A DNA stretch of 56,051 bases from a virus (Duplodnaviria; Caudoviricetes), in IMG/VR virus record IMGVR_UViG_3300009163_000041, positions 1-56,051 of that record. The stretch is one strand, 5' to 3'. Made by a program: the position numbers and the translations under genes. The notes below the pieces were generated by a model. That model saw only the letters and a list, made by a program, of their open reading frames with translations. It searched no databases and was not told the origin of the DNA. Below, piece by piece: positions 18,707-51,163 of the stretch (position 1 is the first letter of the stretch; each line of letters starts with the position of its first letter).

Positions 18707-18882
18707 TTTTGATCTATATGAAGTCCGATAGCCTTTAGAAAGAAAACCACTTTTTCTAAAATGCTATCATCAGCGGGAGTGGGGGTCAGCTTCACAATAA
18801 TCCGAGCAAGGATAACCACCGCCCCAGCCACAGCCACAATTGAACCAAAGTTTTCAGTCGCCCAAGAGATAATGTTATTCAT
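18703..18882 (-). CDS. Holin-like membrane protein
   Basis: TM segment plus IVKLTPTPADD; start MNNIISW at 18882. Confidence 0.7.
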   Translation of the reverse strand: MNNIISWATENFGSIVAVAGAVVILARIIVKLTPTPADDSILEKVVFFLKAIGLHIDQK

Positions 18883-18896
18883 ATATACTTCTGGGG

Positions 18897-18902
18897 TGTC
18901 AA
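18897..18902 (-). promoter_or_regulatory. Late TTGACA motif heading lysis genes
   Basis: TTGACA 14 nt before ATG 18882. Confidence 0.6.
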
Positions 18903-18913
18903 TATGATATGTC

Positions 18914-19948
18914 CTATGCGTTGAAGTTAATATACTTGCGTGGCCTCCAGCGAATATGTCCCACGAATTCTCCATCTAACTCGTGATATGCCTCATGAAT
19001 CTCTATTTCATCCGTTCTCTTGCCATCCTCTCCGACTTTTCTTTTTACATGGCTACAAAGAATATGCGGAATCACGCACATTTTTATATCGGCTGGATGC
19101 CATCTGCTCCAGCATAAAAACAAGTCTTGAGTTCCTTTTAGTTCATACCCCTCAAAGGTAGCTAGAGAGAGAGCTTTCTTGTTCATCATGGTACAACCAA
19201 GGCCAACCCAATCCGTAGGGAGTATTGCCCCTCGCCCGATGGCTGGATAAGCAGAATCTAGCCACCCCCTTTGCCTCCATCCCTTTGACTGAAGCTCAAA
19301 TATGTTCCCCTTGGGGGGACAAGATTTTATCTTTTTATTTAGTTCTTCCCACTCATTTAGTTCTGAATCTTTTGGCTTTTCCTTCTTTTCAAAAAGCTCC
19401 TTACTTCGTTCTTCTCGCTTTTTTATTTGTTTTTTTAGTTCTGCTGGAATAGTTCGTTCTTCTTGCTTAAAGTCTTCTGCAATGTGATGCTGTGGACTTC
19501 CCCTTCCACCTAAGAACTGACCATTTGGATAAGTAACCATTGCAATCCCATAGTATCCATCATCAAACTCAAGTGCCTGCAAAAGAACCTTGAGTGCATT
19601 AGGGGGAACAAGAACATCGCTTTCTATTGACCAGAATATGTCCGAGTCTAGTTCTCTGGCTAAAGAAAAAGCCTTCTGCTGAATTCTTGCTATGATTAGC
19701 TGGGCATCGTCTTTATAGGCTTTTTGAGAGTCTTCGACACCGATTGACTTTATAATATGAGTTGTCCATCCAGCTTGATCTGCCCTTGCCCTAATAGCTC
19801 TGCACTTTTCCTCGCATTCGTCTGAGGTGTCCGTGCTTACTATAATATTACCAGAAAATCCTTTTACAGATGCAATAAAATGCTCAAGCCAAGAATCAAC
19901 AGAGTAACACCATCCTTTTGTAAAATATACCCCGACACATATCTTCAT
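18914..19948 (-). CDS. GT-A fold (GT2-like) glycosyltransferase
   Basis: FWSIESDVLVPP, WVGLGCTMM, QDLFLC, CSH. Confidence 0.75.
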   Translation of the reverse strand: MKICVGVYFTKGWCYSVDSWLEHFIASVKGFSGNIIVSTDTSDECEEKCRAIRARADQAGWTTHIIKSIGVEDSQKAYKDDAQLIIARIQQKAFSLARELDSDIFWSIESDVLVPPNALKVLLQALEFDDGYYGIAMVTYPNGQFLGGRGSPQHHIAEDFKQEERTIPAELKKQIKKREERSKELFEKKEKPKDSELNEWEELNKKIKSCPPKGNIFELQSKGWRQRGWLDSAYPAIGRGAILPTDWVGLGCTMMNKKALSLATFEGYELKGTQDLFLCWSRWHPADIKMCVIPHILCSHVKRKVGEDGKRTDEIEIHEAYHELDGEFVGHIRWRPRKYINFNA

Positions 19949-22401
19949 ACATCTATATATGTACTTCCAATATAGCTTGTAAAGTTAAAAATAGTATTGC
20001 TATATGATGCTCCAGTATCCCAAAATCTTATTGTTCTTGAATCATATCCAGAAGCTCCAATCCAATCTTGGGCATAACCTCCTAAGAATTGAATTCCTAT
20101 TGAATCTTCAGGAATTTCCCCTTTTCTGCGAAATACATTCATTGGTCTTAAAACCATAAAATTACTCGCACTAAATGTAGCGTCGGCATATGTAGTTGTA
20201 TAGCTACTAGTAGAAAAAGAATCAATCTCCGTTATTATTTCTGTGACATAATATGCACAAGGTAATAGTGATATAAAAAGATCATCACTTTCACCTGTAA
20301 ATACTCCCGAATTGCCTATGGTTACCCAATCTGGAAGACTTCTTACTGATTTATTTGGAGAAACAAATATGCCTTTAATAATTTGAAAAGCAGAATATGC
20401 TGAATTTACATCATTGTATCCCACAGAATCTGCATCTGAAAATGTAATTCCCCTATAAATAGTTGTTGACGCACCATTTGGCATAACTCTTGTTATGCTG
20501 GCATTTGTATAAGCAACTGCCCATGTTGTGTAAGCTGTAAATGATGTATCAGTTATGCTCGATGATTCTGGAAGTATAAAAGTTGCAACAAATGGATCAC
20601 TTATATTTGCTACGCCAGCAAGGATTTTTCTCGTAAATGTTGTTTCTGTTGTTTCTTCTGTATTGGAAATTTCCGATATTATAGTAGTAAATGTATCTCC
20701 AATACCAAAAGCTGGAAACTCATAATCTTTATATGCCTTACTATTTAAAATTGAAAATATTCCATTATTTTTGCTTAAATTTGAAGCATTATATGTAATT
20801 CTATTTTTAAAATAATATATTTTTGGCTGTTCACTAAATGACATTTGACCACCGCTTACTGCCACATTAGAATATATATTTCCATAGCCCGCCCAATTTT
20901 CATCATTGATAATAGTTGGACTGTAGACAGTCTGGGAAGCAGGGAATAGTGAATCAATAATGGTCTTTGTAAACGCAAGCTCTGCGGAACCTTTCCAACT
21001 TTCAAAACGAAAAATACAAGATTCTCCTTCAATAGTAGTAATACCTTCAGATTGACCATTATTTACTGTATAATAATTTGTACTTCTAAAAGTGCTGAGA
21101 GGTGCTAAAAAGGTCTTCTCTATTGTAGCATATGTTAAAGTTGTTTTACTTATTGTCGTAAATAACATACTTGAATCAACAAACTCTCCCTGTTCTTGCA
21201 AGACTCCGTTCATTTGTGTTTGCACAGTCGCAGTGGTTATAACAGTTCTTGTTGTTATATAGTTAGTACCTACCATGCTAGATGGGTAACTATACATTTC
21301 AAAAGTGCTTTGCTGTGTAGCTCTGCTTGTGTAGTTTGTGCTTTCGGATGCAAAATCTCCATTGTTTCCGTCATATAAGTAATCCAGTATTCTTTCTGAT
21401 GCATCTGATGAATATGAGATTGTTGTATATTCATTTGTTAGTGTAGTCGTAGGAAAGGAACTTGTGCTAGAGAATATGTTTTCTGTCGCAGAAGTAGGCA
21501 TATTGTCTGTGAACTCTTGATTGTTATTTGTTATGACTGTATTAGAGAATGTTGAGATATCTGTTCCGCTAAAAAAATCAGTGTTTGGAGAGCTTAAAAA
21601 ACAAGCATACGGACTAATTTGCTCCCCATCTGCGTTTGTGTCCGTAATTAACGTATAATCACTATTGTTGCTATTGATACCTGTTCCAATATGATGATTT
21701 ATGTCGGTTGTTACAGATTTTGTTGTCTGAAATTCAATGGCAGTATTTGCTGTTTGTCCTATTATAGTTGATATATTGTAAACGGTTTCCAAGAAAGTAT
21801 AGTTGGTGTTAGCTTGTTGTGTTACTACTATTACTATAGTAGTAGATTCTGTAGTAAAGGATGGGGCGGTATATGTTGTGCCTTGAAGTGTATCAAAAAA
21901 AGATGGTACTGCATTGTATGCGCCCCCAGTCGTGTCGGTTCCATCCCAAGATGTGCTAAATCCTGCACCAATTCGACTTATATAGCCACCAAAATGAGCG
22001 ACAGTAAAAGCTCCCTCCACACTAGCCCCGAAGCTGAAGCTATCGGTAAATTCATATCCACCGACAGCATACAATCCAGTATAGTATGAATATGGCGCAG
22101 CAGAACTAGTAGTCATCTCAAAGCTAAAGGCATCAACACCTATAGTTCCAAAAGCTGAGTCAATTGGATCATTTAGTAAATTAATTAATTCCTCAGCCAC
22201 ACTATAAGTTATGTATCCATTGAAGTCTGTGCTGAAACTACTAACCGCAATTGCATAAAGTGTTTCGAATGTATTATTACTAGTTATTGTGTTATTTTCT
22301 TCTGCACGAGTATATTTATTACTTACACTAGAACTAAATGCACTTACTGACTGTGCATAAATAGAAAACGGACTAAAGTATGTGGTAAGATGTGTATACA
22401 T
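19945..22401 (-). CDS. Very Ser/Thr-rich, Lys-poor tail/receptor-binding candidate
   Basis: 818 aa from MYTHL; visibly AT-rich DNA; end of tail operon. Confidence 0.6.
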   Translation of the reverse strand: MYTHLTTYFSPFSIYAQSVSAFSSSVSNKYTRAEENNTITSNNTFETLYAIAVSSFSTDFNGYITYSVAEELINLLNDPIDSAFGTIGVDAFSFEMTTSSAAPYSYYTGLYAVGGYEFTDSFSFGASVEGAFTVAHFGGYISRIGAGFSTSWDGTDTTGGAYNAVPSFFDTLQGTTYTAPSFTTESTTIVIVVTQQANTNYTFLETVYNISTIIGQTANTAIEFQTTKSVTTDINHHIGTGINSNNSDYTLITDTNADGEQISPYACFLSSPNTDFFSGTDISTFSNTVITNNNQEFTDNMPTSATENIFSSTSSFPTTTLTNEYTTISYSSDASERILDYLYDGNNGDFASESTNYTSRATQQSTFEMYSYPSSMVGTNYITTRTVITTATVQTQMNGVLQEQGEFVDSSMLFTTISKTTLTYATIEKTFLAPLSTFRSTNYYTVNNGQSEGITTIEGESCIFRFESWKGSAELAFTKTIIDSLFPASQTVYSPTIINDENWAGYGNIYSNVAVSGGQMSFSEQPKIYYFKNRITYNASNLSKNNGIFSILNSKAYKDYEFPAFGIGDTFTTIISEISNTEETTETTFTRKILAGVANISDPFVATFILPESSSITDTSFTAYTTWAVAYTNASITRVMPNGASTTIYRGITFSDADSVGYNDVNSAYSAFQIIKGIFVSPNKSVRSLPDWVTIGNSGVFTGESDDLFISLLPCAYYVTEIITEIDSFSTSSYTTTYADATFSASNFMVLRPMNVFRRKGEIPEDSIGIQFLGGYAQDWIGASGYDSRTIRFWDTGASYSNTIFNFTSYIGSTYIDV

Positions 22402-28767: not shown

Positions 28768-28773
28768 TGTCAA
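28768..28773 (-). promoter_or_regulatory. Late TTGACA motif
   Basis: 16 nt before ATG 28751; its TGA is the upstream stop. Confidence 0.6.
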
Positions 28774-31833: not shown

Positions 31834-31848
31834 ATAGGTATTCCCCTT

Positions 31849-31854
31849 TGTCAA
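31849..31854 (-). promoter_or_regulatory. Late TTGACA motif
   Basis: 15 nt before ATG 31833; its TGA is the upstream stop. Confidence 0.6.
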
Positions 31855-37920: not shown

Positions 37921-37926
37921 GCTTTT

Positions 37927-37954
37927 AACTTAACAATGACGCATACTGTGGCAA
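37927..37954 (-). promoter_or_regulatory. Promoter for glycosylation cluster (likely leaderless)
   Basis: TTGCCA-16-TAAGTT with extended TG; ATG 6 nt later. Confidence 0.55.
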
Positions 37955-37956
37955 GC

Positions 37957-37996
37957 AAAAAAGAAAAAGGGGGACAGGACTTTCGCCCCATCCCCC
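37957..37996 (-). terminator. Rho-independent terminator after major capsid gene
   Basis: GGGGGATGGGGC-GAAA-GTCCTGTCCCCC followed by TTTTTCTTTTTT. Confidence 0.85.
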
Positions 37997-38020
37997 TTTC
38001 TCTATGAACTAACCAACCAA

Positions 38021-38983: not shown

Positions 38984-39001
38984 TTTTTTGTATTCCTTTC
39001 T

Positions 39002-39355
39002 TTAGCGGGTGTAGAACACTTCGATGACATCGCCAGACGCACCAGCGTTCCGAACGACACCAGCAGTGATTGCGCCACCAGCAGTGGAGGTTGAAACTTG
39101 ACCATTGATCGCTTGATAAACGAGCGATCCAGCCGTCACCAAGCTCGCACAACGAGCAAAGTTCGAGTTTTGGAAGAGTTTAACAAAGCCAACAGAACCG
39201 CTAACCACATCCTGCTGAAGAACGCCGATAGCGTTTCCTGCCGTGGTTGCGACCTGTGCCGTGTTGTCAGTAGTAGTCATGCTGACGATGCTGTTGGCCG
39301 TCACCGTAGAAGCGAAAGCCAGCGAGGCAAAGCCAGAATCAAATTGAGTTGCCAT
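39002..39355 (-). CDS. Head decoration/cement protein (DUF2190-like)
   Basis: AIGVLQQD, AG..VY...NG.V, A..SGDVIEV. Confidence 0.8.
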   Translation of the reverse strand: MATQFDSGFASLAFASTVTANSIVSMTTTDNTAQVATTAGNAIGVLQQDVVSGSVGFVKLFQNSNFARCASLVTAGSLVYQAINGQVSTSTAGGAITAGVVRNAGASGDVIEVFYTR

Positions 39356-39373
39356 AGTTTTGTTTACCTTTCT

Positions 39374-39907
39374 TTAGAAGCTTTTGCTAAAGCCACCAGC
39401 GGAAAGCTCTTTCCGATATTGTTCTGTGTATTTTCCAACACAAAGACGAAGAGCTTCGCCCTTGGAGATGTTATTTGCTTTCATCTCAAAATTGACTAGT
39501 TCCGAAAAGGTTTCTGGCTTTTTCTCGTTAACAGCGGGAGCCGAATGAGAAATAGGAGCCGACACCATCTTGGAGAGTTCGGTGCGGATTTCATTCAGCA
39601 CACCAGAAAGCTCGATCTTGCCAGCCTCAACAGCAGACATTTCAGCTTTTTCTTCTCTCTTTTTCTTGGCCTGTTCCGAATAAGGAAATGCACCCATATC
39701 CTCAGTAGGATTACCTTCAGCACCTTTCTTATCGATTTTAACAGCAGGAGCAGAAGCTTTTTCATCAACAACAGCTTCAGTCGAAGGATTCATTTTGGCT
39801 TCGAGGGCAGATAGGCGGGTAGCAAATTCTTCCATATACTTCCCGAAATCTTCCATGTTATAAGAAGGTGCAACCTTCTTTTCGGTGGTGTCAGTCGTAG
39901 TTTCCAT
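39374..39907 (-). CDS. Nested in-frame scaffold (internal start METTT)
   Basis: TTGACA 39925-39930 lies 17 nt before in-frame ATG; lambda C/Nu3 arrangement. Confidence 0.55.
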   Translation of the reverse strand: METTTDTTEKKVAPSYNMEDFGKYMEEFATRLSALEAKMNPSTEAVVDEKASAPAVKIDKKGAEGNPTEDMGAFPYSEQAKKKREEKAEMSAVEAGKIELSGVLNEIRTELSKMVSAPISHSAPAVNEKKPETFSELVNFEMKANNISKGEALRLCVGKYTEQYRKELSAGGFSKSF

Positions 39908-40903
39908 ATTACTCAAATTAACCTTGTCAACTACTATACGACCAGAATCCGCTGAAAATAAACCTGTTGGGTTAGAAGCGGGGTGCTGAACTAGGTCTGC
40001 GGAGTACAATTCAGAACACCTCGCAAGGTCAAAATTTGACCCATTTAGCTCTGATTCTCCACTGAACGAAATCGAAATCCCAAACGCATCTGGGATCTCG
40101 GAGGCCAGATCCATGTAATATTTTGCACGATCTTGGCGACTCTTGAGAAAAGTCAAATCAGCGAGAAGTTTGCTTCCGCTTTCGTCAATTCTGAAGTTCG
40201 TGAGTTTGCCGATAATATCAGCAATCCCTGCTCCGTGATTTTCATTTACCTTTACTCCACCCTTAAATTGCTCTGCACAATTCTTAACCTGTTCTAGGGT
40301 GGTGCCGTCAATTTCAAGCTGATGGCCTTTTGCCATGCCTGTAGTTAATACCGAAACTCCTTTTAGGGTCATATTATCGCCCTCCTCGTAGTTATAATTT
40401 TTCTTTTTAGATGCACCCTGTCCTTGAATAACTGCTGTGGGAATCGTTCCCGCTGGCGCACCGCCACCAGAAGTTCCTCCAGCAGAGGTCATCAGATCCT
40501 CTTCTTCGTACTCAGAGGTAGATCTTCCAATGGCTGGCTCAATATCCGTAGAATCGCTTCCCGACTCGCTATTGTTTTGTAGATCCTCTTCATTATTATC
40601 AAAAATCTCAGATGCAATTTCAGCACGATCAGAGGCATCGGGGAACAGCCCAATCATGCCCTCATCAGCCACGAAACGACCCATAAACTCTGCAAATGTC
40701 TCGTCCTCGCTAGGAGTTAAAAGAGTGCTATCAGATGCCAAATTCTTCTTTTTCTGCTTCTTTTTGGTTTCCCTAAAGATGCTTGCCCCTACTGCATACC
40801 GCTGTTTATTATCCGTATAGTCCTTAACGGCAGTGGAGTTACCCATGAATTTTGACATGAAATCAGCGAGATTCTCGCCTTTTTTGGGGGTAGGTAGGGG
40901 CAT
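39374..40903 (-). CDS. Prohead protease-scaffold fusion with N-terminal repeat region
   Basis: AKGH...D, NHG..I..IIG, FGISISF, SADLV..PA.NP.GLFS; coiled-coil C-terminus. Confidence 0.75.
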   Translation of the reverse strand: MPLPTPKKGENLADFMSKFMGNSTAVKDYTDNKQRYAVGASIFRETKKKQKKKNLASDSTLLTPSEDETFAEFMGRFVADEGMIGLFPDASDRAEIASEIFDNNEEDLQNNSESGSDSTDIEPAIGRSTSEYEEEDLMTSAGGTSGGGAPAGTIPTAVIQGQGASKKKNYNYEEGDNMTLKGVSVLTTGMAKGHQLEIDGTTLEQVKNCAEQFKGGVKVNENHGAGIADIIGKLTNFRIDESGSKLLADLTFLKSRQDRAKYYMDLASEIPDAFGISISFSGESELNGSNFDLARCSELYSADLVQHPASNPTGLFSADSGRIVVDKVNLSNMETTTDTTEKKVAPSYNMEDFGKYMEEFATRLSALEAKMNPSTEAVVDEKASAPAVKIDKKGAEGNPTEDMGAFPYSEQAKKKREEKAEMSAVEAGKIELSGVLNEIRTELSKMVSAPISHSAPAVNEKKPETFSELVNFEMKANNISKGEALRLCVGKYTEQYRKELSAGGFSKSF

Positions 40904-40917
40904 ACACCATCAAAAAG

Positions 40918-40948
40918 TGTCAACTGCTATATGTGTAGTATCTTGACA
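40918..40948. promoter_or_regulatory. Back-to-back TTGACA motifs for divergent late genes
   Basis: Minus 40918-40923 is 14 nt before ATG 40903; plus 40943-40948 is 14 nt before GTG 40963. Confidence 0.65.
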
Positions 40949-40962
40949 GGTTGGGCAGTATT

Positions 40963-41712
40963 GTGCCCCTTTCGATAAATCACCTATTAGCTTTAGATTG
41001 GAAAACTTGGGTATGCAGAAATAATCCAGCCGATGCAAGCCCAGTAAGTATTTTTGCTTTTAGTGATGGTGTGACAACTCAAAACAAGACACTTTGGGAT
41101 GGGCTTCCTGTTGTTTGGCAACATCCAACAACGGCAACAACACTTTCAATTGTAACTACAGCCACTACTGCGGATACAGGCGGGAAGATTTTAATAAACG
41201 GCCTAGATTCAAATTGGAACGCAATTACAGAATCCATTACTCTTAACGGAGTCACTCCAGTTGCTACCACGAATTCATTTATTAGAGTAAATGGATTGTC
41301 GATGACCGCACCAGCCAGCGGTGGAACTACGAATGTTGGAACAATTACAGCAAAGGCAAACTCAACTACTTTTGCACAGATCAATCCCACCATCGGAAGA
41401 ACGCAAGCTGGTATATATTCTGTTCCTAATGGATATACTTTGTATGTTTATTCTGTCGATTGTTATAGCGGTGATGCTGGGAGTGGAACAAATTATGTCA
41501 CATTTAATGTTGCGGTAACCCCCAATGCATCTCCTACGCCAGTAACTTTTGATCTTCTTCAGACAACTTGGCTTGGTAACTTTTCAGTTCAAAGGATTGT
41601 TCCCCAAATTCAATACCAGAAAACAGATATTGAGTGGCAGTTTAAAGTAAATAGCGGAACGCAAAGCGTCAGCCTTATCGTGCAGGGAATGTTGCTGAAG
41701 AACGCAGACTAG
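40963..41712 (+). CDS. Thr-rich beta virion-type protein, inverted
   Basis: I.GLD.NW..ITE.ITLNG.T.V.T...F.RVN, N.GTIT, YSVP.GYTLY; GTG start inferred. Confidence 0.7.
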   Translation: MPLSINHLLALDWKTWVCRNNPADASPVSIFAFSDGVTTQNKTLWDGLPVVWQHPTTATTLSIVTTATTADTGGKILINGLDSNWNAITESITLNGVTPVATTNSFIRVNGLSMTAPASGGTTNVGTITAKANSTTFAQINPTIGRTQAGIYSVPNGYTLYVYSVDCYSGDAGSGTNYVTFNVAVTPNASPTPVTFDLLQTTWLGNFSVQRIVPQIQYQKTDIEWQFKVNSGTQSVSLIVQGMLLKNAD

Positions 41713-41800: not shown

Positions 41801-42022
41801 TCATGCTTCCTCCTGTATTGCCAGATCCGCTAGTTTGTTCTCGATCTTGGTCTTAACGGCAACGATTGCGCCGTACTCTGTTTCGGATTCCACATTATGA
41901 GGCCATACCCTTCTGCCGTCCCTACCTAGCAGTACCCAGCTATCCGTATCTACTTCTACCGCCCTGTCGCATTTAAGGACAGCCTTCAGATCGTCTGGAA
42001 GATTTAAAACAATTGTGTTCAT
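41801..42022 (-). CDS. Early-type hypothetical protein
   Basis: AGGAGG RBS. Confidence 0.65.
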   Translation of the reverse strand: MNTIVLNLPDDLKAVLKCDRAVEVDTDSWVLLGRDGRRVWPHNVESETEYGAIVAVKTKIENKLADLAIQEEA

Positions 42023-42031
42023 GTTGCCTCC

Positions 42032-42307
42032 TTATACTGGCAGAAGACTTGCGATCTTCTGCTCAAGAGTCGTTTCCGCTACTGCCGTGCAACTACAGGT
42101 CTTGGGATCAACCTCGAATACCCGATAGAGTACTTCAATCACCTTGTAATAGCCAGCCTTTGCCTTGGTTGGCTTATCGCCTGTGATTGCCCACAGCAGA
42201 TATTGACGGACATTACTGTTCTGGGAACCGTACAACTGGAATATTCTGGACGGCAGAATACCCAATTGGTTGATTGCTTTCAATGCTCTCTCTTGTTTGC
42301 TGTTCAT
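42032..42307 (-). CDS. Early-type hypothetical protein
   Basis: CCAAGAAAGGA RBS. Confidence 0.7.
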   Translation of the reverse strand: MNSKQERALKAINQLGILPSRIFQLYGSQNSNVRQYLLWAITGDKPTKAKAGYYKVIEVLYRVFEVDPKTCSCTAVAETTLEQKIASLLPV

Positions 42308-42337
42308 GGTTTTTGTCCTTTCTTGGTTTCGGGTTGC

Positions 42338-42553
42338 TTACCAAAAGTTCGACAGGAGTTTTTCCTCTTCCTCTTTACTTGCAATATGGAAGCTGTCCTT
42401 ATCGACTTGATCCACAAGCTTTGGATCTTCTTTTAGCCACCTATTGCGAGCGTTTTTATAGGCATCCCTACGGCTGATGCCAGACGCAGTGTTCCATCCA
42501 CCATCCTTAAAGAAGTAGGTGTAGCTTTTAATTTTTTTAACTTGGTTGTTCAT
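42338..42553 (-). CDS. Early-type hypothetical protein
   Basis: GAAAGGA RBS, MNNQ start. Confidence 0.7.
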   Translation of the reverse strand: MNNQVKKIKSYTYFFKDGGWNTASGISRRDAYKNARNRWLKEDPKLVDQVDKDSFHIASKEEEEKLLSNFW

Positions 42554-42571
42554 TGTTATATTCCTTTCTAG

Positions 42572-42913
42572 TTAAACCGCCAATTGCAGATTCCGATCCT
42601 CGATGTATTTGACGAAGTGAGCGATGGTCTGATCGTAGTTTTTGGAGGCCAACTCATCCAGCACACTCTGACTGAATCGTTTTGCCGTCTTGATGAATTG
42701 CTTTACACCATTAAAAGCCACATAGCTTTCGACTACATACCCGACCTCCTGCCGTTTCTCGACTGCCTTTACCGACAAGTAGTAGCCACGCTCTTCGTTT
42801 TTTGAGCTGAAGTAATTCACCCCACCCTTGCTGTAGAACAGATTGACTTTGTAGTAGTGGTTGGGCTTTGCCTCGATTGGGATTTCTTTGATGGTTTTTG
42901 TTTGGTTGTTCAT
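42572..42913 (-). CDS. Early-type hypothetical protein
   Basis: YSKGG.NYF....RGYYLSV...RFS pattern; MNNQ start. Confidence 0.75.
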   Translation of the reverse strand: MNNQTKTIKEIPIEAKPNHYYKVNLFYSKGGVNYFSSKNEERGYYLSVKAVEKRQEVGYVVESYVAFNGVKQFIKTAKRFSQSVLDELASKNYDQTIAHFVKYIEDRNLQLAV

Positions 42914-42940: not shown

Positions 42941-43453
42941 CTAGATTACATTATCCAGAGCCGTTTGGCAAGAAGAATCTTTAGTTGGCTTGACGCATTT
43001 TTTGTAAACTTCTGGGTGAAACTCCTTCAGGTACTCAAGCTCATTTCTTGTTGTCTCAAGCTCGCCCCTGTTTAGGTTTAATTCGTATTGAGCGTGATGG
43101 GTGAGTTCGTGAACAAGCGCACATAGGATCTGAATTTCCCTGTCCACCTTCAGCCCTGTTGTGGCTTTTTTGGAAACATTCAACGATTTTTTATCGTATA
43201 AATACAGATCATCTCTTGTGCCAATACAGGTATTGGGAGCGAGATATTTACCGCACTCCACTTGATTCCTGTAATATCTGGATCTGCTGTAACTACCGCT
43301 AAAGATGTATTCGGTAGTGGTGAAGTCCACGGAAGGATATTTGACCTGTAGCCAGCTTACCGCTTTTTCAATGAATGCTGGGATTTGATCTACAAGCCCT
43401 CTTGGTACTGAGTTTCGAATGGTTACTTTGGGGTTGGTTTGGTTGTTTGTCAT
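42941..43453 (-). CDS. Zincin-like metallopeptidase-motif protein
   Basis: LVHELTHHAQ (HExxH) plus downstream E; leaderless start MTNNQ. Confidence 0.65.
   Translation of the reverse strand: MTNNQTNPKVTIRNSVPRGLVDQIPAFIEKAVSWLQVKYPSVDFTTTEYIFSGSYSRSRYYRNQVECGKYLAPNTCIGTRDDLYLYDKKSLNVSKKATTGLKVDREIQILCALVHELTHHAQYELNLNRGELETTRNELEYLKEFHPEVYKKCVKPTKDSSCQTALDNVI
42943..42971 (-). promoter_or_regulatory. Early promoter with palindrome
   Basis: TTGCCA-17-TAATCT; TCCAGA-GCCGT-TTGGCA. Confidence 0.75.
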
Positions 43454-43459
43454 GGTGGT

Positions 43460-43488
43460 ACTGTACATCATTCCAACCCGCTTGGCAA
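43460..43488 (-). promoter_or_regulatory. Early promoter with palindrome
   Basis: TTGCCA-17-TACAGT; TTCCAA-CCCGC-TTGGCA; ATG 6 nt later. Confidence 0.85.
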
Positions 43489-43535
43489 GCATTATTTAAT
43501 CTTTTTTTACCCTCTAAAATTATTTTATTTTGTTG

Positions 43536-43570: not shown

Positions 43571-44422
43571 ATGATCAAAAACATCCAAGACATCCAAAAG
43601 CTGAAACCCACCGAAATTCGCAAGCTCTCGAAAGCCGAACTGGAGGAGATCGTTCCTCTTATTCGTGCCGAGTACAAAAGATATAAGTCGTTCGCCAGTC
43701 TCATTGAAAATGATTCCGAACGGCATGAAGCTGTAAATACAGAATTTCGGCTAGATGAGTTGTATCGTGCTGGGCAGAGTCGCTTGGAGAAGTATGCCAA
43801 GGAAGAGCGCAAGGCTCTTCGTGAGTCCAAGCAGAATTCCAAGGAGATTGAGCGCAAGCGGATCGAGGATCTTGCCTCCACTCTCCGCAAGAACTTGGTT
43901 CCTGTTGAGAATGCTCTTGTTAAATCAATCATTGAGCGTGACAACATCCGACTCGGAAAACAGGAAGAATTCTTCAAGTCGCTTCCCACCCCCTATGTGG
44001 TCAAATTCATTTATGGCTACTCGGACAAGAAGGATGAATTCGACTACAGCGTTTTCAGCCAAGAGTATCGCCGTTTCTGGGAAACGGAACGGTTGGCAAA
44101 CGACTTTCCTCTTCGCAGGGAGCAAGTCACCAAGAAGTTAGAACTGGACGCAAAGATCGAAAAAGATGCAAAAGACTATGCCAAGATTGCCTGTGACGAG
44201 TTTGCGTTCAAGATCGTGCAGAAAACAGAGAAGGAGATCAAAGAGCGTGGCACTGATGACAAGATCGTTTCGACCTCCTACGAGGGTAATGTGAATCCTT
44301 GGGATGGCGGTCAGGTGATCGTCACCACGACCAAGGGCAAGTATGTCTGGAACACCAAGGTCATCCTGAACTTCTCGAAGTACGGACTACCCTTCAACCA
44401 GTGGCCGACTCGGTTGGCCTAG
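43571..44422 (+). CDS. Early hypothetical protein
   Basis: Leaderless start MIKNIQ; C-terminal I.N.SK.G..F.QWPTR. Confidence 0.75.
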   Translation: MIKNIQDIQKLKPTEIRKLSKAELEEIVPLIRAEYKRYKSFASLIENDSERHEAVNTEFRLDELYRAGQSRLEKYAKEERKALRESKQNSKEIERKRIEDLASTLRKNLVPVENALVKSIIERDNIRLGKQEEFFKSLPTPYVVKFIYGYSDKKDEFDYSVFSQEYRRFWETERLANDFPLRREQVTKKLELDAKIEKDAKDYAKIACDEFAFKIVQKTEKEIKERGTDDKIVSTSYEGNVNPWDGGQVIVTTTKGKYVWNTKVILNFSKYGLPFNQWPTRLA

Positions 44423-44541
44423 TCCTTCTTGGAATCTTTGGTCTTCTTGATCTCTTTGAGTGCTTCGATCATGTTGTCCAGAGATTTGTCATCACGGCTG
44501 GACAATTCATCTGCCAGTGGATCAGTCGAAGAGGTTGCCAT
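44419..44541 (-). CDS. 40-aa charged peptide overlapping the polyprotein stop
   Basis: Read by hand: MATSSTDPLADELSSRDDKSLDNMIEALKEIKKTKDSKKD. Confidence 0.45.
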   Translation of the reverse strand: MATSSTDPLADELSSRDDKSLDNMIEALKEIKKTKDSKKD

Positions 44542-47500
44542 GGGTTGCCTTTACTGGAGCAGTGCCTTTGCTCCGATCTGCGTTTCCGTCAAGAGAGTAA
44601 CCGATGTCGGCTATCTCCTCAGAGGTAATTTTGTTCCAAGTGTTCCTAGCTTGTTGGGCTGATCCCTTGATGTAATTGTAGGGAACATAGCGTCCATTGG
44701 GTTTATTGAATCGCTTGGAAGCTCTGGTCAAAGCCACTTTATCATCCACATCCACATGAACTATCCCGATTTTATATCCAACCGATTTTAGAGTTTTTGC
44801 CATGTCTGCAACCTTATTAGAGTTTTTACCAGTGATGTCGATCAAAAGATTGTGATTTTCCATAACTGCCCTTGGGAATACGATCTTCTCGGATATAAGC
44901 GCAGACTCCTCATGGAACGCACCAGCATTCCAGCCCTCAAATCCTTTTGACTTACCCTTAACGGAATCTGGATCGATCTTAGTTGTTTCTTTTCCGTTTA
45001 GGATCTTTTCTGCAAATGGTCTTCCAGTAGTCGTTTTCCCGCTGGCTGGAGATCCCATGAGAATTACTGCAATAGGATTGTCCGACTTGGCTTTGGGATT
45101 CAGTTCGCTTTCAATAACGGAATCCTTCCACGCCTTGTGTTCTGGGGTTGGGTTTTCAAATGTTTCTACGATGTCTTTCTTCTGGATGTATCGCTTGGGA
45201 TCTCTCAGCGACCAATGGGTTACTGGGGCATTCTCCGAACCCTCTGCTTCGGCAACTTCCTTTTGCAATTTGGCCATCTTTTCAATTGTTATTTTAGTTT
45301 TTGGCTCTGCATTTAGTCTTTCAATCTCTTTTTCAATTTCATCAATTGTAGTGCTTGTTTCGGATTCTTCCTCGCCTTTGGATGATTTCCCCTTTGCCTT
45401 TCCCTTGGCTCCTCCACCGCCCCCCCCACCCTTCCCAGACCATCTTCCCTTTTCATCCCTTGGCTGATCTGGATTGTAAAACTCGATTTTCTCTCCGTTG
45501 TATTGGAAAACGAATGATTCGATTGCTACCGCTTCGTCAAACTGGAATCCCTCGGAACCATCATCTGGAAGTTCAATCACGATGGGTACATAAATCAACT
45601 TACTTCCATCTGCCAACTCTTTTGTCGCCACAGGGGATGGTTTGGGGCCGTTCTCGTAAACATATTTCCTAATCGAATCGACCTCGAAGATCTGCATTTT
45701 TTTGATGGCACTTGGAGATACTGCGCCGTCCTTGGTAAAGATTTTTGACACAGCCGCCAGCCCAGTTTTGCCCATCTTTTGAGCCTTGGTTGTTGGGATG
45801 TTGTCGGCAACGCTTTTAAATCCATCTGCCAATACGCTGATAATCCCGATCATTTGCCTCCCGCCAATCTTGGGCGATGACCCAGAACGCAGTACGCCGT
45901 ACTCCATGGCTAGATCCAAACTGTCCGTGCTGTACACCTTGCCACCACCCCAAACGCCACTTTTAGAGGGTTTTAGGCCGTCTCTTCGTATGTCTTTAAG
46001 CACATCTGCTGAAGTTCCGTGATAAAGGGTAGTTGCCTCCCCAGTCTTTTTGCTTGCCTCCGCTGGATTATCTTGCGCCCACCTTGGGGTGGGTGTAGCT
46101 CCTTCAGCTATTGCTCCACCCCCAGTCCACTTTCCAGAGTTATCTCTCTGTTGGTTTGGATCGTAGAAGTCTATCGCTTGATAGCTCCTGTAATAATTAC
46201 GCCCTCCCCATCGTTGTACTCCGAGGCGAACACGATTCGGGAAAGATCGCTCATAGTTGTCGATGATTGATTTGTAGGCTTTTTTTCCTGCAATCCTTGT
46301 GTCTCCACCGATGAACTCTCCGACTCCCCTGACTGCTTCTGATTTTCCATTTATTGCTCCTAGAAATTTGGCAACATTAGCGGTCAACTGCGATCCTTGG
46401 TCTAGGATTGTTACGCTAGTCTTGGCTCTGTCGCCTACCATTGTTCTAAAACTAATCCCATTGTCTGACAATATTTTTCTGACCTCATCCATTGGCCTGT
46501 CTGCTGAGATTTTATGCAGAATATCGGGACCGTCCTTCTTCTTCTGAAAGGCGACAACTGCCTTTTGGTTTAGGCTCGCCCCCAGCTTGGATGCCGTGTA
46601 TTTAAGTTGATCAAAGTCCTTCACTCCCTTTACATCGATCTTAATCGAATTCTCTGCCCCATCTTCCCAGTCACCCACCCCAGACTCGACCTTCCCATTC
46701 ATGTCTTGCTTTTTGATGGCATCTCTTGCGATGCTAACGGCTCTCGCATGTTCGGGCGAATCGATCATCTTTTTCGCCTCTTCGTAATTCATGTTCTCTT
46801 TAATGTTTGGAGAGACAAGGATTTCACCGCCAGAACCACCACTACCAGTCCACTTGCCAGATGCATCTCTCTCTTGGTTTGGATCGTAGGCGAAAGTAGT
46901 TACCTCAAATGTCTTCTTTCCCTCAATCTCTTCACGAATGGCAACTGCAATTGCATCTGCCAAGTAGTCTGCCACATCGTCCATGTCTGGATCTTTTTCG
47001 AGCGTTACAACATTACGGTTTGCCGACATGGGGCGAACCCCGATTCCCTTGCGTACTATGTTTGATACTTGCCTACCGCCTTCAACTTTTCTGTATTCGG
47101 CTACTGCACCTTTTACGAATCCCCTAAATGCAGATTGACCAGCAACTATACCCCCTAGTTGTGGGTTAATTAAGGCTCCAATAAGAATCTTATACCGATC
47201 TCCGTGTGCGCTTTTTATTGCCTCAATGCCTCCTTGAGATCCGATGCTGATCGTTCTAGCAATCCCACGCAAAAACTGCTGGCCGTTGTCACTAGCAAGC
47301 CAATTTTTGATCTGATAGGCTTTAGAAGCCCCATATTGGGTAGCCATCTTAGCTCCATTCGCAATAGCTGTAACGCCCTTTATAGCCCCTTTTACGCTCG
47401 ATTTTGCCATATCTAGGGCTGGATTTCCCCTTTGAGCCTTCTCGATGAGCTTGCCCTTGAACCCACCGCCACCACCACTCCATTTGCCAGACTCGTCTCT

Positions 47501-47947
47501 TTCCTGTGATGGATCGTAAAGCAGTGTTGCCCCTTGTTCCTTTAGGGCTAATAGATCTGCCTTTAATTGTTCGAAGTTGGTCTTGTCGGTAATCGGACCC
47601 CCAACTATCCATGCATCGCAAGTTCTCAGTGAGGCGCATTTAAAATCAAAGATTTCGCAGTAACCCAGATCGCCAGCTTGCTCAACTTCCTTTGCATCCA
47701 TCCCAATCCCCTTTGTAATACATCCGATAAGCCTTGTTGTCTGGTTGAATCCAGCGCAGTTCCCGCAACGCATCGTCTTGGCTTCTTTAACCGATCCACC
47801 AAAGATCTTTGCTTTCGCCGTCCAGTATTCCTCATTCGGCTCCTTGGGATTGGCGGGGCCGTAATGTGCTACATCAATAGCCTTCTGCCGATTGGCTAGG
47901 TTGGTTTTGATGTCCTGTGTTGGGAGTGGACACTTACTCTCAGCCAT
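44522..47947 (-). CDS. Multi-module head-associated protein (HiPIP-like, SAM-lyase-like, ART-like, zeta-kinase modules separated by YDPxQxRDxxGKW repeats)
   Basis: Repeats at aa 144, 354, 595, 824; CGNC..C..C..CDAW; GDW.DG.ENS...LNQKAV; LYHGTS...VYST; MGSPASGKTT, IDPD, HEES, GRYVP. Confidence 0.8.
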   Translation of the reverse strand: MAESKCPLPTQDIKTNLANRQKAIDVAHYGPANPKEPNEEYWTAKAKIFGGSVKEAKTMRCGNCAGFNQTTRLIGCITKGIGMDAKEVEQAGDLGYCEIFDFKCASLRTCDAWIVGGPITDKTNFEQLKADLLALKEQGATLLYDPSQERDESGKWSGGGGGFKGKLIEKAQRGNPALDMAKSSVKGAIKGVTAIANGAKMATQYGASKAYQIKNWLASDNGQQFLRGIARTISIGSQGGIEAIKSAHGDRYKILIGALINPQLGGIVAGQSAFRGFVKGAVAEYRKVEGGRQVSNIVRKGIGVRPMSANRNVVTLEKDPDMDDVADYLADAIAVAIREEIEGKKTFEVTTFAYDPNQERDASGKWTGSGGSGGEILVSPNIKENMNYEEAKKMIDSPEHARAVSIARDAIKKQDMNGKVESGVGDWEDGAENSIKIDVKGVKDFDQLKYTASKLGASLNQKAVVAFQKKKDGPDILHKISADRPMDEVRKILSDNGISFRTMVGDRAKTSVTILDQGSQLTANVAKFLGAINGKSEAVRGVGEFIGGDTRIAGKKAYKSIIDNYERSFPNRVRLGVQRWGGRNYYRSYQAIDFYDPNQQRDNSGKWTGGGAIAEGATPTPRWAQDNPAEASKKTGEATTLYHGTSADVLKDIRRDGLKPSKSGVWGGGKVYSTDSLDLAMEYGVLRSGSSPKIGGRQMIGIISVLADGFKSVADNIPTTKAQKMGKTGLAAVSKIFTKDGAVSPSAIKKMQIFEVDSIRKYVYENGPKPSPVATKELADGSKLIYVPIVIELPDDGSEGFQFDEAVAIESFVFQYNGEKIEFYNPDQPRDEKGRWSGKGGGGGGGAKGKAKGKSSKGEEESETSTTIDEIEKEIERLNAEPKTKITIEKMAKLQKEVAEAEGSENAPVTHWSLRDPKRYIQKKDIVETFENPTPEHKAWKDSVIESELNPKAKSDNPIAVILMGSPASGKTTTGRPFAEKILNGKETTKIDPDSVKGKSKGFEGWNAGAFHEESALISEKIVFPRAVMENHNLLIDITGKNSNKVADMAKTLKSVGYKIGIVHVDVDDKVALTRASKRFNKPNGRYVPYNYIKGSAQQARNTWNKITSEEIADIGYSLDGNADRSKGTAPVKATHGNLFD

Positions 47948-49956
47948 TATTCGCTCCGTGCTTTGTCCAGTTGACCGACAATCTTTTTAGCCCTTGATAG
48001 TCCAGCATCACCGCCCCATCCCATGTATGCTTGCCATCCTTTGCCTTGTTCGCTCCATGTCGAACCCTTCTTGTCCACTTCATGCCGTGAAAGGAAGCTG
48101 TAAATCCTACGCCAAGTGCGGGGAGAAAGCTTTTTGCGTCCGATAATGTCCCTAGCTCTTGCGATTCCAACCTGTGTCATTCCACGCTGGCTGGCTGGCT
48201 TTTCAGCTCTTACCCGCAAGGCAGACTTGGCAGACTCGACCATCCCATCACTAGGGTAAAGATCAATATCAGAGATGCTCTGCATCTCGATTGCGTCCAG
48301 TACCATTTCTGCATCTTGTGTTGTAAATTCTTTTGATGTGCTTGTGCGCCTTGCCCTAGATGGAACATAATCATCCTCTAAGTGCTGTTGCTTTATCTTT
48401 GCTACTTCTTCTTTAGGCTGTTGATCTGGAGCCTGTGGCTGTTCTTCTGGTGCTGGTACTGGTGCTTGCGCCTGTGGGAACGCTGGCATTGATGGCTTGA
48501 AAGCCTCGGAAATAGATTCGATTGGCACATCCATCTCTTTTGAAAGATCCTTGGCAAACTTAACCTCATAGGCTCGTTGCCGTAGTGCCTCTTCATAGTC
48601 CTCTCCTTTAGCTCCGTACACCTCAGCAGCCGTTCTTAGCCCCGCCTTAAACTCGCTGATATTTGCTTGTGAATCGCGGCCTACATCAATGGTGCTATCT
48701 GAAGGGTAAATCCACTTGCCCTTTGTGAAATTGCTATTGGGCGGGATTTTGCCCCTAGAAATTCCGTCTGCGATTACCAAGTTCTTGATCTTATCAAAGA
48801 AGCGATCTTCTAGGATATTCTGCCAACGCTTGAATGTGCGTGAGGCCAGAGCCATCTCAAGTCGTACAGTTGGACCCCCAAGCTTGGAGAGATCGTAGCA
48901 GAATCCGAATGGAAGATTAAAGGCCAAGGCAATCATGTGAACGATCAGATCCACATACCCTTGAAAAGCTGAAGATGGGCGATTGCTTTCAAACATTTTC
49001 ATCTCAGAGCCAGTAGGGATATAGTTAATTTGACCCCTCTGCATGTTTTCAATGTTCATCGTATTACCATACGAATCTGTCTGCGCTTGGTTAAAGTAGG
49101 ATGCGGGATCGTCGGAAGATCCTGTCGCATTCGAAATTGTCATAATTCGGAAAGCCGCGTTTTTTACGGCAAGGTTTTCTGCATCCATGGTTTCAGCAAG
49201 ATCCTTGCAATAGTTAATAACAGAGGCCAGATGACTACGACCACGAACCTCATCCAGCCGTAGGGGATCGTAAATAAATAGGAAAGACGATGCGGGTACT
49301 TCTTGTGCGTCCGTATAGAAATTGCCCTGCGTCCGTCGATAAACTTTGTATGATTCAGTGCGTCCGAATTTGTCAAACTTAACTCCACCAATGTATTCTT
49401 GGCTAGAGGTTGGGTTGTCGAACATGCCTCCGATGCGATCAGCCTCTACGGCTTGAATTCGAATATCACTGTTAGGATCTACTTGATCTCCAATTGACCT
49501 CTCTCTAGTGATCACGAACCCAACATCGCCGTCACGAAGTACAGAACGAAGAGCAAGATGAGACAAGGCGTGGAAATTATTCCTACCAAAAAAGTCGCAC
49601 TTCCTTCCCCAAGCCGACCAGTAATCCTCATATATCTGATCGATATTTCTATCTCCAGTTCGAGACATATATCTGAAATTACCAAGGGCATACTGCGAGA
49701 ATTTCAAAAGGATAGATCGGATGATTGGATTGTTGTCTTCCAGATCACGACCAGCTTTAATCAATTCAATACGCTCAAATGTGGAATTGTATCCCTCACC
49801 ACCAGACAATGGCCGTGATGGCAATCTGTCTCTAAGGGGATATGCTCCAGCGAATCTTGTTAATTCGGTGAGCTTGCACTTATCGGCAAGTCTTTTTACC
49901 CCGAATTTGGGATTAATCGCAGTAAGAGCTTTTTCAAAAAAATTCAGACTAGGCAT
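47947..49956 (-). CDS. Lambda-family portal protein with C-terminal extra domain
   Basis: R.L..NNP, LRDGD, EADRI, GGV.FD.FGR, R...VRG; TAATG coupling to next gene. Confidence 0.9.
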   Translation of the reverse strand: MPSLNFFEKALTAINPKFGVKRLADKCKLTELTRFAGAYPLRDRLPSRPLSGGEGYNSTFERIELIKAGRDLEDNNPIIRSILLKFSQYALGNFRYMSRTGDRNIDQIYEDYWSAWGRKCDFFGRNNFHALSHLALRSVLRDGDVGFVITRERSIGDQVDPNSDIRIQAVEADRIGGMFDNPTSSQEYIGGVKFDKFGRTESYKVYRRTQGNFYTDAQEVPASSFLFIYDPLRLDEVRGRSHLASVINYCKDLAETMDAENLAVKNAAFRIMTISNATGSSDDPASYFNQAQTDSYGNTMNIENMQRGQINYIPTGSEMKMFESNRPSSAFQGYVDLIVHMIALAFNLPFGFCYDLSKLGGPTVRLEMALASRTFKRWQNILEDRFFDKIKNLVIADGISRGKIPPNSNFTKGKWIYPSDSTIDVGRDSQANISEFKAGLRTAAEVYGAKGEDYEEALRQRAYEVKFAKDLSKEMDVPIESISEAFKPSMPAFPQAQAPVPAPEEQPQAPDQQPKEEVAKIKQQHLEDDYVPSRARRTSTSKEFTTQDAEMVLDAIEMQSISDIDLYPSDGMVESAKSALRVRAEKPASQRGMTQVGIARARDIIGRKKLSPRTWRRIYSFLSRHEVDKKGSTWSEQGKGWQAYMGWGGDAGLSRAKKIVGQLDKARSE

Positions 49957-50386: not shown

Positions 50387-50860
50387 TTATTGAAGTGTTA
50401 ATAAGTACTTTAGCCTGTTTAATTCACCTACCACTCCGTCTCGTAGATTGAGCAAATCGGTGTCGGATGGCTTTACGCTCCGTGTGAATTCGCCCATTAA
50501 AAAGTCGATTGTCTGATTTGCAAGAGTAACTCCAGCTCCATCTGCAAGATTCATAAGAGAGATATTGAAGTTGTTGTTTGCGTAAGCTCTTCCATATCTT
50601 CCGAAATATGTCTCAAGAAGTTCGTCAATTGAATTGCCTAGGATCTCGTAAATCTTGCCAAAACTCTTATGATGACTGAAGCTTTTGGTCTGCCAGTGAT
50701 ATATTCGGAATTGATTCTGAGTGTAAAGTAACTGCATTACAATGACTTCCGCATTGTTCTTTGGGGAAATCTCTGTCAAAACCTCTACTGGAGCTTTAAC
50801 AATTTCAAAATCGTTTTTCATCTTATCCACTTTTTCAATCATTTTATCGAGATGATTCAT
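50387..50860 (-). CDS. Ferritin/Dps-like protein (DUF5856-like)
   Basis: HWQTKSFSHHKSFG..Y...D.L.E.Y.G.YGR; L.N.RD....LN...YLLTL. Confidence 0.8.
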   Translation of the reverse strand: MNHLDKMIEKVDKMKNDFEIVKAPVEVLTEISPKNNAEVIVMQLLYTQNQFRIYHWQTKSFSHHKSFGKIYEILGNSIDELLETYFGRYGRAYANNNFNISLMNLADGAGVTLANQTIDFLMGEFTRSVKPSDTDLLNLRDGVVGELNRLKYLLTLQ

Positions 50861-50875
50861 ATTTATCGCTATTTA

Positions 50876-50881
50876 TATCAA
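50876..50881 (-). promoter_or_regulatory. Late motif variant TTGATA
   Basis: 15 nt before ATG 50860. Confidence 0.5.
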
Positions 50882-50886
50882 CTAGA

Positions 50887-51144
50887 TTAATTTCTGCCAC
50901 CCCTTGAATAGTCTGGGAAAGTGCGATTGATTCTGGCTCTTGAGCCACCCAAGCGATTGATAGCCGCCGTGCATTCCATGACTGTATTCTGTAGCTCCTG
51001 TAAATTTGCTCTTGTAAGTTGTCTTCCACCAATGCTATATGATGCTCCAGTCTTTAGGATGGCTTCGATTGCTGTTAGGGTTTCTGTTCGAATTTGTGTA
51101 ACTGTGGCTAGGTCTAAGCCGTAATATACACCTTGAATAGCCAT
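50887..51144 (-). CDS. gpW-like head completion protein
   Basis: AI.AIL..GASYSIGGRQLTRANL.EL between terminase and portal. Confidence 0.8.
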   Translation of the reverse strand: MAIQGVYYGLDLATVTQIRTETLTAIEAILKTGASYSIGGRQLTRANLQELQNTVMECTAAINRLGGSRARINRTFPDYSRGGRN

Positions 51145-51157
51145 GCTTTTGTATAGC

Positions 51158-51163
51158 TGTCAA
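51158..51163 (-). promoter_or_regulatory. Late TTGACA motif
   Basis: 13 nt before ATG 51144; its TGA is the upstream stop. Confidence 0.6.

Follow-up and report, generated by a model that had tools for sequence, protein, structure and literature searches.

TTGACA boxes precede start codons of structural and lysis genes

The virus record IMGVR_UViG_3300009163_000041 (Duplodnaviria; Caudoviricetes) is 56,051 bases long, and this whole stretch, referred to below as the window, was analyzed for a short element found just upstream of start codons, the hexamer TTGACA. Almost all genes of the window lie on the minus strand, and genes typical of a tailed phage could be named from PHROGs and Pfam families (Table 1). 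An initial annotation of this DNA had listed nine copies of the element, eight of them exact and one with the variant TTGATA. The coordinates and start-codon distances of all nine were confirmed. The eight exact copies, here called boxes, are spread from 18.9 to 51.2 kb, and each lies 13 to 17 nucleotides (nt) from a start codon; this distance is called the gap.

As the annotation stated, the TGA of the box doubles as the stop codon of the upstream open reading frame (ORF) at three sites, namely, 51158 (where it ends a 60-amino-acid [60-aa] ORF), 31849, and 28768. The box at 18897 heads the lysis block, in which the gene for a 59-aa phrog_9685 protein is followed by the endolysin gene; the start codon at 18882 is supported because the PHROG profile covers the 59-aa protein from its third residue onward. 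The names given earlier to the gpW-like, Dps/ferritin-like, portal, capsid, and endolysin genes have family support. The others ("protease," "scaffold," "tube," "fibre," "neck," and "holin") matched no named family in profile searches, and they are used below in quotation marks to indicate gene position only. The description of the signal as late fits the boxes of the structural and lysis genes, where most of them lie, but not a further conserved box at 3745, which is outside the structural region.

Table 1. Boxes, canonical promoter units, and reference genes of the window
Feature	Coordinates	Strand	Distance to start codon, gene, or support
TTGACA box	51158-51163	-	gap 13 to ATG 51144, gpW-like head-tail adaptor gene
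Variant TTGATA box	50876-50881	-	gap 15 to ATG 50860, Dps/ferritin-like gene
22-nt conserved module holding TTGATA	50861..50882	-	directly before ATG 50860
TTGACA box	40943-40948	+	gap 14 to GTG 40963, 249-aa phrog_8198 gene; right half of divergent pair
TTGACA box	40918-40923	-	gap 14 to ATG 40903, 509-aa head-maturation ORF ("protease"); left half of divergent pair
TTGACA box	39925-39930	-	inside the 509-aa ORF; gap 17 to in-frame internal ATG 39907 (177-aa nested product, "scaffold")
TTGACA box	33107-33112	-	within 96-nt intergenic gap; gap 16 to ATG 33090, 107-aa gene ("neck")
TTGACA box	31849-31854	-	gap 15 to ATG 31833, 589-aa gene ("fibre")
TTGACA box	28768-28773	-	gap 16 to ATG 28751, 119-aa gene ("tube")
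TTGACA box	18897-18902	-	gap 14 to ATG 18882, first gene of lysis block ("holin")
TTGACA-N12-CGCA	3729..3750 (box 3745-3750)	-	gap 41 to ATG 3703, outside late region
Canonical promoter units, first hexamers	54928, 43488, 37954, 16222, 15957, 6770, 4837	-	
Canonical promoter unit, first hexamer	43536	+	
Strong intrinsic terminator	37966..37999	-	after major capsid gene
Large terminase	51339-53132		PHROGs/Pfam
gpW-like adaptor	50887-51144	-	phrog_118, DUF6148
Dps/ferritin-like protein	50387-50860	-	phrog_858, DUF5856
Portal	47947-49956		PHROGs/Pfam
Major capsid protein	38021-38983		PHROGs/Pfam
VanY-type endolysin	17894-18382		PHROGs/Pfam

The hexamer and its distance to the start codon are conserved

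TTGACA is scarce in the window, with 19 copies on both strands against 39.2 ± 5.7 in shuffles. Twelve copies are on the coding (minus) strand, and for seven of these an ATG that begins a long frame follows after 13 to 17 nt. Of the seven plus-strand copies, one sits 14 nt before GTG 40963. The positional preference was examined without gene calls, by comparing all 4,096 hexamers with every ATG, on either strand, that opens at least 50 codons, the word ending 13 to 17 nt upstream. TTGACA ranked first (7 of 19 sites against a background of 2.04%; binomial p = 5.9e-8), and the runner-up reached p = 3e-4. Positional enrichment over the genome background, a check set beforehand, was therefore found.

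The pattern was also checked in related phages. A scan with the large terminase gave 25 related viral contigs (73 to 98% identity) and two distant ones, and five fuller related records (G001 to G005) were read entire; together with the window phage (G000), these are the six genomes referred to below. In the six genomes, 46 of 69 coding-strand TTGACA copies lie 13 to 18 nt before an ATG opening at least 50 codons (all 9 copies in G003 and all 7 in G004). At every orthologue found in the 25 contigs and the five fuller relatives, the hexamer is exact and, with few exceptions, each gene keeps its own gap, while the spacer is free to change. The box before the gpW-like gene is exact in all 30 related loci that have this gene, with a gap of 13 or 14 and 17 flank or spacer versions. 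The box before the "protease" gene and its gap of 14 are exact in 11 of 11 related loci, with nine spacer versions. Similarly, the box inside the 509-aa ORF and its gap of 17 are retained in 6/6 genomes even though adjacent codons vary. The boxes at 33107 and 31849 are each retained in all six genomes (the former with a gap of 16 in five genomes and of 18 in the sixth, the latter with a gap of 15 in five genomes and of 14 in the sixth), the box at 28768 is retained in the five genomes that have the 119-aa gene, and that at 18897 is found with its gap of 14 in 5/5 genomes, with four spacer versions that are each 14 nt long. The invariance of the hexamer next to a free spacer indicates selection on the word and on its distance.

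When 77 distinct sites were aligned on the box, the only information outside the hexamer was A or T at -2 and G at -1, and no motif extending beyond (A/T)G-TTGACA was found. Boxes with one mismatch occurred before true gene starts at 4 of 298 coding-strand sites, against about 3 expected by our own estimate; the sole conserved one is TTGATA. The observation is real and strongly conserved.

The box is neither an ordinary -35 element nor a ribosome-binding site

The box is an exact -35-like hexamer at all eight sites. However, in a consensus scan for sigma-70-like promoters, a -10 word (TAnnnT) 16 to 18 bp downstream was absent at 8/8 TTGACA boxes, and the TTGATA variant alone scored (9/12, with AATCAT). 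Because the gaps are 13 to 17 nt, normal geometry would start transcription 12 to 16 nt inside the ORFs, which bears out the earlier argument that a canonical -35 would put the start within the gene. Coding begins at the annotated ATGs, because variation of the wobble type is seen from codon 2 in the gpW group (GCT/GCC/GCA directly after the ATG, then ATT/ATC/GTT/GTG/GTA, and then CAA/CAG) and because family profiles align near the first residues (from residue 3 in the "holin" and residue 13 in the gpW-like protein). A sigma-54 promoter (-24 GG/-12 TGC) does not fit either, since there is no conserved G at -10/-9 from the box in the 77 distinct sites.

The genes behind the boxes also have weaker Shine-Dalgarno (SD) pairing. 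Duplex energies, calculated with a generic anti-SD sequence, averaged -1.9 kcal/mol for box genes versus -4.8 kcal/mol for the other 60 ATG genes (Mann-Whitney p = 0.019). Among seven box genes, the one starting at 31833 has a good SD-like word (AAGGGGA, in the spacer). The box itself differs from an SD in lying 13 to 17 nt rather than 5 to 10 nt from the start codon, and it has no complementarity to the same anti-SD tail.

The box replaces canonical promoters and is not always tied to a start codon

The phage also has promoters of ordinary layout. Eight canonical units were found in G000, each consisting of an A-rich stretch, CTTGCCA, CTTGCAA, or CTTGTTT (once TTGACT, on the plus strand), a spacer of 16 or 17 bases, and TAnnnn. 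All eight end 6 to 10 nt before an ATG, most often 6, so that the ordinary promoters of this phage also look leaderless in design. Since such units leave the first gene leaderless, a position linked to the start codon is expected for any promoter here. The unit at 43536 makes the plus-strand gene 43571-44422, which is divergent from 42941-43492, look real. The -35 words of these units are TTGCCA, TTGCAA, or TTGTTT on the coding strand and TTGACT on the plus strand, and never TTGACA. Position 4 is strictly A in the box, whereas it is C or T in 7 of 8 canonical words (TTGACT has A), which hints that the reader of the box may differ from that of the canonical units.

At orthologous sites, box and canonical unit can take each other's place. 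The small-terminase-like gene has a canonical unit in most relatives (for example, CTTGCCC-N17-TATAAA-N5-ATG), and in four loci of the G002 group it has TTGACA at gap 15 instead. A second exchange was found behind the major capsid gene, whose terminator is present in 6/6 genomes with compensatory stem changes that keep pairing. Directly after the terminator T-run, G000 has CTTGCCA-N16-TAAGTT-N6-ATG, and G002, G003, and G005 have TTGACA-N16-ATG. In the window, a minus-strand cluster at 33846-37920 with glycosyltransferase (GT47-like, GT2), radical-SAM-like, and methyltransferase genes lies between this terminator and the head-tail genes and has its own canonical promoter; in G002, G003, and G005, its place is taken by a 96-aa gene that follows a TTGACA box.

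The back-to-back boxes in the 59-bp divergent gap 40904-40962 had been taken as an argument for promoter function. They are 19 bp apart, each 14 nt from its own start codon, and the 249-aa gene is the sole plus-strand gene of its region. A plus-strand gene at this place needs a promoter within or near the 59 bp, which argues that the box is one. This argument holds and is strengthened by the relatives, in which an unrelated plus-strand gene of 95 to 97 aa replaces the 249-aa gene and likewise has a box at gap 13 to 14.

Two conserved boxes vary in their distance to the ATG. The box at 3745 is followed 12 nt downstream by an invariant CGCA and then by 25 nt of leader, which contain a strong SD and run up to ATG 3703. 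TTGACA-N12-CGCA is identical in five sequence versions, with ATG distances of 40, 41, 45, 45, and 48 nt. The 22-nt TTGATA module precedes the Dps-like gene in 11 loci, where the box is 15 nt from the ATG; in 14 loci without a Dps-like gene, it precedes the portal gene with a gap of 18 to 19 or 29 nt. Therefore, the position of the box does not depend on the start codon itself. These alignments point to a fixed functional position 13 to 17 nt downstream of the box, which at most sites would be the A of the ATG.

The box is probably a compact promoter

We consider it probable that TTGACA acts at the DNA level as a compact promoter producing messages with little or no leader. A literature search found no description of this word at this distance from phage start codons, and such a promoter would be undescribed so far. 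TTGACA would form the core, or the upstream part, of a compact promoter specific to the phage; RNA polymerase would start about 14 to 18 nt after the box, usually at the A of the ATG; and the first gene of each unit would give a message without a leader or with a few leader bases. A weak TAnnnn word resembling a -10 stands 1 to 5 nt after the box in about half of the gene groups, in the register to the ATG that the -10 has in the ordinary promoters of this phage. The initial annotation had suggested a late promoter with a geometry impossible for a normal -35/-10 pair. After comparison with the relatives, this is the best supported of the proposed explanations.

Two features of the spacer are consistent with such a start. 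Transcription starts usually prefer a pyrimidine at -1 and a purine at +1, and this preference is matched by the base before the ATG, since 48 of the 77 distinct sites have T there and 16 have C. In G000, T precedes the ATG in 5 of 7 box genes versus 15 of 60 other genes (p = 0.02). In addition, TA is found 11 to 13 nt before the ATG in a group-weighted fraction of 0.55 of 25 gene groups versus 0.33 ± 0.075 with shuffled spacers, a value reached by 4 of 1,000 shuffles. Positions -13 to -11 are the register of the canonical -10 of this phage. Examples are TTGACA-gc-TATACA-aaagc-ATG (gpW), TTGACA-gagc-TATATA-tgtaat-ATG (107-aa gene, with TATATA 6 nt before ATG 33090), and TTGACA-caaa-TAGTAA-actaga-ATG ("tube," with TAGTAA 6 nt before ATG 28751).

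Several observations weigh against this explanation. About half of the groups lack the -10-like TA, among them all 14 "MPL" versions (mostly of the "protease" gene), and six base pairs by themselves make a weak signal for a specific promoter. Searches with PHROGs and Pfam, and a relaxed Pfam scan of 34 small proteins, turned up no sigma factor, RNA polymerase, or known late activator. The spacers of several relatives hold good SD-like words (AGAAAGGA, AAGGAG, and GGAG), and AGAAAGGA, the usual SD word of the phage, occurs in the relatives' spacer after the capsid terminator. Such words would be useless on a leaderless message; they agree with transcription that begins upstream of the box or at it, or they could serve read-through transcripts. 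Furthermore, the compared genomes are kin, so counts across them are not independent events. Gene-internal TTGACA is below the expectation from synonymous-codon shuffles of four related genomes (20 versus 42.2 in sense and 10 versus 25.7 in antisense), but this depletion ranks only 194 and 285 of 3,860 hexamers; as support for a promoter it carries little weight, because these ranks are unremarkable and many restriction-type words are far more depleted. Finally, no RNA run containing the phage was found in a search with window positions 31001-41000, and the start sites are deduced. Four DNA-type runs of one study contain 22 to 23% of the sampled words of the same interval (contigs only).

It is unlikely that UUGACA serves instead as an mRNA element for translation initiation, whether it replaces the SD, acts as an enhancer, or is bound by a phage RNA-binding protein where the ribosome footprint has its 5' edge. 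Such an element would explain the tight, gene-specific distance to the start codon, the strand specificity of the box, and the weak SD pairing of box genes, and it has a precedent in a start-linked motif of cluster K mycobacteriophages called SAS, for which a role in translation is proposed (PMC3203893). The two conserved boxes at variable ATG distances (40 to 48 nt; 15, 18 to 19, or 29 nt), one of them with its own strong SD, do not fit, nor do spacers that carry a normal SD besides the box. Moreover, the box takes the place of canonical promoters at orthologous sites, including right after a terminator, and in the divergent gap a promoter is required for the plus-strand genes anyway. UUGACA does not pair with the generic anti-SD tail in the duplex energies, and no fold signal was detected (mean minimum free energy z score, -0.25; mean unpaired probability of the box, 0.54, ranging from 0.07 to 0.98), which weighs against a structured RNA element and not against a linear one. 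Boxes untied to the start codon, promoter exchange, and the missing structure signal thus weaken the RNA-level alternative offered by the annotation.

It is quite unlikely that the box is a late-regulator site, or a sigma-dependent pause or loading site, acting on polymerase that began elsewhere (through antitermination, pausing, or repression). In favor of such a site, sigma region 4 recognizes the word TTGACA, early elongation complexes that contain sigma can be retained at a -35-like element (PMC3326312), and the divergent gap contains the inverted pair TGTCAA-N19-TTGACA. However, no common promoter element lies upstream of the boxes, no other candidate promoter for the plus-strand genes is present within the 59 bp, single boxes are not palindromic, and region 4 pausing is confined to about the first 15 nt of the transcript (PMC3326312). 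A processing or initiator site would allow the SD-like words in several spacers to be used and would agree with the word TATAGT/TATAGC 2 nt upstream of the box at two sites. We regard it as decidedly improbable because no upstream -10 or other element is common to the sites, there is no RNA structure for a structure-specific nuclease, and the invariant CGCA 12 nt after the 3745 box points to a functional position downstream. There is very little chance that the box is an ordinary -35 element, with transcription beginning some 30 nt beyond it, within the annotated ORFs, and real start codons further down. In spite of the perfect match to the sigma-70 consensus, this reading is contradicted by the 0/8 boxes with a -10 at 16 to 18 bp, by the third-codon-position variation from the annotated ATG onward in the gpW group, and by the profile alignments from residues 3 and 13 of the annotated "holin" and gpW-like products.

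Candidate readers of the box

If the box is a compact promoter, it could be read by region 4 of the host sigma factor repositioned by a phage factor or by a dedicated phage DNA-binding protein. A more detailed version of the former is possible but doubtful: sigma region 4 would be detached from the beta flap by a small phage protein, which would let the holoenzyme read TTGACA 1 to 5 bp upstream of a weak -10-like word, switching from promoters with a 17-bp spacer (host and early phage) to promoters with a collapsed spacer that would start late messages at the start codon.

Two proteins with a putative helix-turn-helix (HTH) had been proposed as readers, and this proposal was not supported beyond weak HTH matches, both under the Pfam cut-off: HTH_38 for 39-494 (E = 0.005) and HTH_3 for 11723-12286 (E = 9e-4). 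A first structure model of the latter was poor (pLDDT 57), and a second, built from 90 remote homologues, reached pLDDT 87.5. The good model shows a generic three-helix HTH (best VIA Z, 5.3 over 49 residues; Foldseek E of at least 0.25), and the protein is accordingly predicted to bind DNA. Sigma factors or sigma region 4 recur solely in nonsignificant Foldseek rows (E = 0.25 to 1.7) and were not counted as evidence. When the 90 homologues were compared with Pfam, the matches were to MarR_2 (13), Sigma70_r4_2 (3), and Sigma70_r4 (2), all of them weak. The gene 11116-11739 (minus strand; 207 aa), which overlaps the start of this HTH gene, matches the LmbU-family regulators (NCBIfam NF038070; E = 3.9e-31; 108 bits, with a cut-off of 125 bits). 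The core of the LmbU-family palindrome is GCCGGC. The window does not contain this core, nor does the box form a palindrome.

Relation to known promoters and start-linked motifs

Like sigma-70 promoters, the box has the -35 consensus hexamer, and TAnnnn is often in the normal -10 register to the ATG. Unlike in sigma-70 promoters, the hexamer and the -10 register are 1 to 5 bp and not 16 to 18 bp apart, a distance that sigma regions 4 and 2 of a normal holoenzyme are not known to span. The late promoters of T4 consist of the word TATAAATA at -10, which gp55 recognizes together with gp33 and the sliding clamp. They resemble the box in that a single short element is repeated before many late genes; the word and its position differ. 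PHROGs and Pfam gave no factor of the gp55/gp33 type, even when matches of 34 small proteins were considered up to E = 0.5, although remote homologues could be missed. At lambda PR', the -35-like and -10-like words are spaced by 1 bp. In lambdoid Q-loading and early elongation complexes, region 4 reads a TTGAC-type word at a noncanonical distance once it is freed, similarly to what is proposed here; those complexes are a pause of a started complex that serves antitermination and not initiation (PMC3326312).

The closest working analogue is found in Thermus phages (Lalka27a, and YS40 as cited there), which have dense leaderless late promoters with most transcripts beginning at the A or G of the start codon (bioRxiv 10.64898/2026.04.20.719267). 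These promoters have a -10 (TAGGGT) 6 bp before the start together with a C at -25, with 5'-end data backing half of the sites; like the paired boxes here, two of them are opposed in a short gap next to the gene for the prohead protease, and the specificity of the host polymerase is inferred to be changed by a phage factor (bioRxiv 10.64898/2026.04.20.719267). In both systems the promoters, here the putative ones at the boxes, are many and are distributed throughout the late genes, without reliance on a single antiterminated operon. The systems differ in that the Thermus phages conserve the -10, whereas the invariant element here is TTGACA 13 to 17 nt before the start, with a -10-like word in about half of the groups and starts deduced from sequence.

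SAS is the closest known start-linked phage motif. SAS/ESAS is 13 bp long, lies 3 to 7 bp from the start codon, has an SD core (AGGAG), and is confined to nonstructural genes (PMC3203893). Like SAS, the box is short and asymmetric, stands in one orientation before many starts, prefers ATG, sometimes includes the upstream stop codon, and is conserved across relatives before different gene families; the function of SAS is given as unknown (PMC3203893). Unlike SAS, the box is 6 bp long, is 13 to 17 nt away, has no SD, and precedes mainly structural and lysis genes, which places it outside that group.

If the box is a promoter, it would represent a class whose sole invariant element is the -35 consensus word at a place where no known holoenzyme geometry can use it. 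It would imply an unknown way of directing RNA polymerase, through a remodelled host sigma factor or a new phage factor, and it would mean that leaderless messages are widely used by phages whose host group has been little studied. In annotating these uncultured phages, the box can also guide the choice of start codons and the delimitation of transcription units, as 3 of 7 minus-strand box starts differ from the longest-ORF call.

Gene content, relatives, and host

Besides the genes in Table 1, PHROGs and Pfam named a tape-measure-like protein, Erf, an exonuclease, and several glycosyltransferases and methyltransferases in the window. No Rfam family matched the window, and no tRNA was found in it or in the other 37 related loci scanned. 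A single tRNA-Met is present in the relative G005 (L016:2370-2442 = L041:9550-9622), with no TTGACA box upstream.

A DNA search against cultured phages gave no match, and a search with the portal protein gave relatives at 30% identity or less only, with no close cultured relative. The sole match in prokaryote genomes was a 2.5-kb contig binned in a metagenome-assembled genome of Terrimicrobiaceae (Verrucomicrobiota), in which no match to the capsid gene was found. Capsid relatives at 25 to 30% identity occur in 3 of 401 Verrucomicrobiota genomes; the box pattern was not seen around these three, with one possible site in 96.7 kb. A Verrucomicrobiota host is at most hinted at, by the binned contig. 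One Verrucomicrobiota contig with a distant capsid relative (L047; G241:C52:1-16738) has 20 TTGACA copies in 16.7 kb, mostly as ATTGACA, and all but one (gap 14) have no link to a start codon.

Restriction-type words are strongly avoided in the window: CCWGG was found 0 times (86 ± 9 expected) and GGWCC 6 times (64 ± 8 expected). ATCGCG, AGCGCT, CTGCAG, CTTAAG, GGATCC, and words containing ACGT are far below the synonymous-shuffle expectation in four related genomes. Methyltransferase-like genes are located at 35696-36244, 53640-54239, and 54941-55969. Beside the portal gene, 44522-47947 (minus strand) encodes a 1,141-aa protein with a C-terminal Zeta-toxin/kinase-like domain (PF06414; E = 1e-17; residues 953 to 1111), and its first 930 residues had no match in an Atlas search. 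By its position, this protein may be packaged in the head. About a dozen small genes in 3812-8487 and 41801-42913 (minus strand) begin with ATG AAC AAC (Met-Asn-Asn), each behind the same SD word, AAGAAAGGA, and may form a paralogous family of small early proteins.

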